From the sequence record FN394999.1: a stretch of DNA of 2,827 nucleotides; one strand, written 5' to 3'. Source of the stretch: Enterobacteria phage CUS-3. The notes beneath the pieces were generated by a model. That model did no database searches. It saw only the letters and a list, made by a program, of their open reading frames with translations, and was not told the origin of the DNA. This document shows, in pieces, positions 1,763 to 2,179 of the stretch (the stretch's first letter is position 1; every line of letters starts with the position of its first letter). A program made the translations under genes and the position numbers.

Positions 1763-2179
1763 NNNNNNNNNNNNNNNNNNNNNNNNNNNNNNNNNNNNNN
1801 NNNNNNNNNNNNNNNNNNNNNNNNNNNNNNNNNNNNNNNNNNNNNNNNNNNNNNNNNNNNNNNNNNNNNNNNNNNNNNNNNNNNNNNNNNNNNNNNNNNN
1901 NNNNNNNNNNNNNNNNNNNNNNNNNNNNNNNNNNNNNNNNNNNNNNNNNNNNNNNNNNNNNNNNNNNNNNNNNNNNNNNNNNNNNNNNNNNNNNNNNNNN
2001 NNNNNNNNNNNNNNNNNNNNNNNNNNNNNNNNNNNNNNNNNNNNNNNNNNNNNNNNNNNNNNNNNNNNNNNNNNNNNNNNNNNNNNNNNNNNNNNNNNNN
2101 NNNNNNNNNNNNNNNNNNNNNNNNNNNNNNNNNNNNNNNNNNNNNNNNNNNNNNNNNNNNNNNNNNNNNNNNNNNNNNN
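1763..2179. other. Run of 417 N (masked or unsequenced); presumably hides the tailspike 3' end, the intergenic region and possibly the true 5' end of the acetyltransferase gene
   Basis: Directly visible as n characters. The length equals 139 codons. Confidence 1.

Follow-up and report, generated by a model that had tools for sequence, protein, structure and literature searches.

Immediately upstream of an acetyltransferase reading frame in the 2,827-nucleotide stretch of DNA analysed here (the window), sequence is replaced by an unbroken run of 417 Ns (positions 1763-2179), which abuts ATG 2180. This ATG opens a hexapeptide acetyltransferase frame of 216 codons that stays open to the end of the window. 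Such an arrangement raises the question of what the run stands for, and in particular whether it conceals a tandem-repeat tract that switches the gene on and off by phase variation. A preliminary description had proposed exactly this, placing both the true start of the gene and its repeat tract within the run. The answer depends on the identity of the gene, on the origin of the record, and on the position that the tract occupies in related genomes.

Composition and origin of the record

The window is composed of four pieces of real sequence and three N runs of 100, 291 and 417 positions (Table 1). A megablast search of a phage collection with the pieces flanking the runs recovered the GenBank series FN394218 and FN394986-FN395002, in which each of the 17 sibling records has a length of 2827 bases and aligns to the window, coordinate for coordinate, with 98.2-99.9% identity. 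These siblings derive from different K1 strains and bear titles of the form 'Enterobacteria phage CUS-3 partial proviral terminase gene, siaK1 gene and neuO gene, genotype GT_x'. One of them, FN394997.1, was read directly; it differs from the window by 2 bases, contains the same three N runs, and is annotated with four partial CDS features whose ends fall exactly at the N-run borders. Compared with these CUS-3 genotype typing records, the window has equal length, fragment borders and N runs; an identical record is absent from the collection, where the nearest genotypes are 2 bases away. By elimination, the window is probably FN394999.1, the only accession of the series that the collection lacks.

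The window is a multi-locus typing record of prophage CUS-3 of E. coli K1, in which a partial terminase gene, two fragments of siaK1, and neuO are joined by Ns. Because FN394997.1 shares the N runs and its CDS features stop at their borders, the Ns are the depositors' filler in a concatenated record, and reflect neither a later mask nor an assembly failure. The series is presumably that of Mordhorst et al. (2009, Environ Microbiol 11:3154). The same paper is reference 13 of PMC3046976.

Table 1. Features of the window, with the observations on which each placement is based. L002 is the locus of the complete CUS-3 genome CP000711, read in the window's orientation.
Feature	Window position	Strand	Basis
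Phage terminase small subunit, partial gene, first typing fragment	1..438	+	Annotation in FN394997.1; homologue CP000711 22265-22705
Arbitrary 100-N spacer at the terminase/siaK1 join	439..538	.	About 18 kb between the loci in the phage
siaK1 (endosialidase tailspike) fragment 1	539..1030	+	L002 1224-1715, 0 mismatches; siaK1 in sibling annotation
291-N filler for the central part of siaK1, unsequenced	1031..1321	.	Length equals L002 1716-2006 (291 bases)
siaK1 fragment 2, C-terminal part of endosialidase	1322..1762	+	L002 2007-2447, 3 mismatches; siaK1 in sibling annotation
417-N filler for the last 264 nt of siaK1 and the 153-nt intergenic region	1763..2179	.	L002 2448-2864, exactly 417 bases
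Predicted neuO start codon	2180..2182	+	Equals L002 2865-2867
Junction at which the poly-psi tract (AAGACTC)n is absent; 133 nt in the reference	2182..2183	+	Window compared with L002
neuO body	2183..2827	+	L002 3001-3645, 3 mismatches

Concatenation also affects what may be read from the order of the fragments. The spacer at 439-538 joins loci that are not adjacent in the phage, where the terminase gene occupies CP000711 22265-22705 and siaK1 occupies 2526-5471, with window position 539 corresponding approximately to CP000711 position 4013; given the distance between the two loci, conclusions about gene order drawn across this run would be wrong. At the other end of the window, the siaK1 fragments precede neuO, and the order siaK1 - neuO - int - attL, with neuO beside the tailspike and integrase genes at the end of a P22-like prophage, is found both in CP000711 and in E. 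coli chromosomes.

Identity of the acetyltransferase

The suggestion that the acetyltransferase is NeuO-like is well founded. The window protein matches PDB entry 3JQY with E = 1.6e-142 and is near-identical to it over 215 residues (2-216). Residue S2 of the window protein aligns with S30 of 3JQY, and the resulting offset of 28 arises because the 3JQY construct carries four heptads. Both catalytic residues, His119 and Trp143 in the NeuO+0 numbering that is the convention for NeuO without heptads (PMC3046976), are present in the window protein, and at the nucleotide level the window's neuO is 99.5-100% identical to the neuO of CUS-3 records. The enzyme is identified by its sequence as NeuO, the polysialic acid O-acetyltransferase of CUS-3, which belongs to the left-handed beta-helix (hexapeptide-repeat) family.

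Content and length of the 417-N run

In the reference locus, the interval that corresponds to the run begins within siaK1, of which it contains the last 87 codons and the stop (L002 2709-2711), and continues through the intergenic region, which ends in TAGGATACTAAT. An AGGA ribosome-binding site lies 7 nt upstream of the ATG at 2865, and the ATG is followed by TT, by (AAGACTC)19 at 2870-3002, and then by GTTTTCCGTTGATGAT. Tandem Repeats Finder, applied at a low threshold to the whole reference locus, returned this array at 2870-3002 as the sole one and nothing in 2448-2864. The distance from the end of the siaK1 fragment to the neuO ATG is 417 bases in six of the six loci measured by script (L002, L003, L005, L009, L010, and L012), and the same distance separates the fragment end from the annotated CDS start in L011 (Table 2). 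The repeat tract, which had been expected inside 1763-2179, lies beyond the ATG in these loci and is preceded there by 417 bases free of repeats. As judged from homologous sequence, the 417 Ns represent what are very probably ordinary non-repeat bases; their content is supplied by relatives, the strain's own bases being absent from the record.

The length of the run had been regarded as arbitrary, and it is not: it equals the reference interval L002 2448-2864, and appears to have been copied from CUS-3 reference coordinates. Repeats had likewise been mentioned as a common cause of masked or unassembled sequence. Here, the Ns are deposited filler, the tandem-repeat search of the reference interval was empty, and the run lacks the character of a gap produced by repeats during assembly or masking, in that it has 417 positions in both the window and FN394997.1, coincides in length with a non-repeat interval, and ends before the start codon. 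Homologous sequence gives, for the masked interval, an absence of tandem repeats, a conventional ribosome-binding site, and ATG 2180 as the start, the three features that the preliminary description had itself set against a hidden tract. A separate idea, that the length of the N run encodes the copy number (a constant plus 7n), was considered and rejected, as 417 is the constant alone and the sibling has a run of equal length.

In the reference, the intergenic region beneath the Ns contains two sigma-70-like candidate sites, TTGACG-17-AAAAAT (L002 2777-2805) and ATGACA-17-TAAAAT with an upstream TG (L002 2820-2848). Both are consensus matches only, and promoter-like hexamers were not counted as evidence of function. 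The regulator DsdC is reported to act on neuO chiefly by binding inside the gene and downstream of it, the promoter showing no more than a modest peak (PMC9659370).

The repeat tract in related loci

The statement that neuO is switched by a 5'-AAGACTC-3' tract encoding RLKTQDS proved accurate, such a tract being present in CUS-3 itself and in each of the related loci inspected. The annotation of CP000711 describes it as 'poly(psi) domain; contains 19 copies of heptanucleotide repeat AAGACTC', and in all seven related loci examined (AAGACTC)n begins 2 nt after the ATG. RLKTQDS heptads are visible in the translations, with three repeat units per heptad. Translation from the ATG yields full-length NeuO with 9, 15, or 18 copies and meets a premature stop with 19, 32, or 53 (Table 2), and the check that had been proposed, whether the copy number is a multiple of 3, therefore gives in relatives a read-through with multiples of 3 only (translations; PMC3046976).

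Table 2. The siaK1-neuO interval and the AAGACTC tract in related loci.
Locus	Bases from siaK1 fragment end to neuO ATG	AAGACTC copies	Product
L011	417 (annotated CDS start)	3	Full length (annotated CDS)
L012	417	9	Full length, 237 aa
L003	417	15 (interrupted)	Full length, 251 aa
L009	417	18	Full length, 258 aa
L002	417	19	Stop at 49 aa
L005	417	32	Stop at 94 aa
L010	417	53	Stop at 143 aa

A wider sample came from complete genomes of E. coli, in which most of a query extending from the 3' end of siaK1 through neuO is present in 157 of 5426. Among the matches listed, the length difference from the reference span is an exact multiple of 7 in all 45 full-length places, and the copy numbers inferred for these 45 places range from 3 to 53, with multiples of 3 in 13. 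Both the range and the share of multiples of 3 agree with a survey of 64 complete genomes, in which 3-53 repeats were found and 65.6% of loci were OFF (PMC13001214).

Individual alleles display a certain degree of variety around and within the tract. The 15-unit tract of L003 (IMGVR_UViG_2537562173_000011, 2044-2148, minus strand) is interrupted by recurring AAGCCTC and AAGTCTC variants, which create a higher-order period of 42 nt: the block (AAGACTC x3, AAGCCTC, AAGACTC, AAGTCTC) occurs twice and is followed by AAGACTC x3. The reading frame is kept through this tract, which specifies RLKTQDS/SLKTQVS heptads, and in a search of IMG/VR the interrupted variant was found in the L003 contig only. 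Interruptions of this kind should reduce slippage, and thus the allele may be a partly stabilised ON allele. In E. coli GN02050 (L011 718-745; NZ_CP095505.1), three repeats (ON) are preceded by ATG TC, not ATG TT, and followed by GTTTTTC in place of GTTTTCC, and the predicted N-terminus reads MSRLKTQDSFFVDD.

The tract also leaves its mark on assemblies and annotations. Of the seven IMG/VR contigs in which the start of neuO is present, four (L004, L006, L007, and L008) terminate within the AAGACTC array, 9-13 copies into it; the tract is a common breakpoint of short-read assemblies, and copy numbers taken from draft assemblies are therefore unreliable. In E. coli GN05064 (L010 1-564 and 1404-1739; 53 copies, OFF), PGAP, the NCBI annotation pipeline, gives only a 111-aa 'acyltransferase' from an internal start, and calls the neighbouring tailspike gene, with its internal stop, a pseudogene. 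CP000711 assigns just a repeat_region to neuO and no CDS. As the truncated ORF of L010 and the missing CDS of CP000711 both attest, automatic annotation hides neuO whenever it is OFF.

The start codon and the missing tract

Since the N run matches exactly the 417 non-repeat reference bases that precede the ATG, ATG 2180 is predicted to be the true neuO start codon. Consistent with this placement, the acyltransferase CDS called by PGAP in the ON genomes L011 and L012 starts at locus position 718 (300 + 417 + 1), which is the equivalent of ATG 2180, and the AGGA motif of the reference lies 7 nt upstream of it. The preliminary description had instead taken this codon for an internal methionine, on the supposition that the N run masks the 5' end of neuO and holds both the true start and the AAGACTC tract. 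That neuO does have a tract near its 5' end, and that repeats break assemblies, as in the IMG/VR contigs of the locus that end within it (4/7), would be in keeping with such a masked 5' end. However, the run has the same length of 417 in the window and in FN394997.1, with identical coordinates in 17 siblings from different strains, and in every relative the ATG follows the end of the siaK1 fragment after 417 non-repeat bases. Native alleles, moreover, lack a Met where window codon 2180-2182 would fall; in native ON alleles an Asp (GAC) stands directly before the Ser of window 2183-2185, and the protein reads ...KTQD-SFSVDD. The alignment to the crystal construct with its four heptads, offset by 28, likewise fits ATG 2180 as residue 1. 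With these observations taken together, a start hidden under the Ns is highly improbable.

If ATG 2180 is the start, the tract should follow it, and what follows it in the window is a junction. The reference reads ATG TT (AAGACTC)19 GTTTTCC and the window ATG TC GTTTTCC, with 133 nt (19 x 7) of the reference missing between positions 2182 and 2183. A search of the window for an AAGACTC dimer, tolerating up to 2 mismatches, found none, and tandem repeats of any kind are likewise absent from it. The window protein begins MSFSVDD, which is the in-frame, repeat-free 'NeuO+0' text. The same holds across the series, in that 17 of 17 siblings match a neuO query from its first base (the ATG) at 2180, with no extra length for a tract. 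Zero copies throughout a whole strain panel, as against the 2-93 copies of natural isolates (PMC3046976), suggest that the tract was removed from all records of the series by editing and that the window does not depict a natural allele. Presumably, the depositors removed it because a tract of hypervariable length cannot be aligned.

A strain with a naturally repeat-free neuO, phase-locked ON and reading ATG TCG TTT as in the window, would also account for the junction. The window text is indeed an intact in-frame ORF, recombinant NeuO+0 is active (PMC3046976), and the natural ATG TC that precedes the tract in L011 means that full loss of the tract could give the window sequence. Such an allele is nonetheless very unlikely here: a uniform zero in 17 of 17 siblings from different K1 strains indicates editing, the literature range for natural isolates starts at 2 copies, and at least 3 copies are present in all 45 of the complete-genome places listed. 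It would be similarly surprising if the strain carried a zero-copy, permanently ON allele of low activity that escapes phase variation, or if its 417-base interval were unexpectedly unlike the reference. As for Ns added after deposition to hide a feature, and absent from the public record, the idea can be practically dismissed, given that the public FN394997.1 has N runs at the same coordinates and CDS features flagged partial exactly at the run borders.

Editing of the records, the preferred reading of the junction, has a direct consequence. Because the record omits the tract, neither the neuO copy number nor the ON/OFF state of the source strain is recoverable from it. The preliminary description had also held the ON/OFF state to be unreadable, and that conclusion stands, although for another reason than the one given: the tract appears to have been removed at 2182|2183 rather than hidden in the N run.

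Discussion

Taken as a whole, the locus is best explained, with very little room for doubt, by N filler that precedes the true neuO start and by a tract downstream of the ATG that was left out of the records. In such a scheme, the depositors would have filled unsequenced stretches with Ns to reference length. In the living strain, slipped-strand mispairing would change the copy number in steps of 7 nt, full-length NeuO would be made only when that number is a multiple of 3, and each three repeats would add one RLKTQDS heptad to the N-terminus of the enzyme. Published work identifies slipped-strand mispairing as the driver, with gain or loss of a single unit as the commonest event, and shows that the catalytic efficiency or activity of NeuO rises linearly as heptads are added (PMC3046976; PMC13001214). 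High-frequency switching within a clone is reported, with 21 copies in 93% of cells and minorities that had 20 and 22 (PMC13001214). O-acetylation, in turn, alters sensitivity to K1 phage, neutrophils, and serum (PMC3046976; PMC13001214).

The finding is essentially an artefact of the record, in a system whose details are already known. A description of phase-variable O-acetylation of the K1 capsule appeared in 2005, and repeated characterisation has followed; the underlying biology is genuine and of medical relevance. What the record adds is a caution about its own use. The window and its 17 siblings display neuO as an intact ORF from ATG 2180, and a naive annotation would present the gene as constitutively ON, the phase-variable tract that decides its expression having apparently been edited out of these records. 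An N run in a deposited, concatenated record should, equally, not be taken as hidden repeat DNA.

The closest known system is the neuO poly-psi contingency locus of CUS-3 itself (Deszo et al. 2005, PNAS 102:5564; King et al. 2007, J Bacteriol 189:6447). The window contains the same gene with the same neighbour, siaK1, as the locus described by Schulz et al. (2011; PMC3046976). It differs in that its text is without the defining repeat tract, which the record omits. More distant counterparts are the simple-sequence contingency loci of other pathogens, such as surface-modification genes of Haemophilus and Neisseria with tetranucleotide and homopolymer tracts. The principle shared with these loci is a tandem repeat inside the gene, near its 5' end, where slipped-strand mispairing shifts the reading frame. 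In neuO, by contrast, the repeat unit is 7 nt long and is translated, and the copy number therefore also tunes the activity of the enzyme through its RLKTQDS heptads (PMC3046976).
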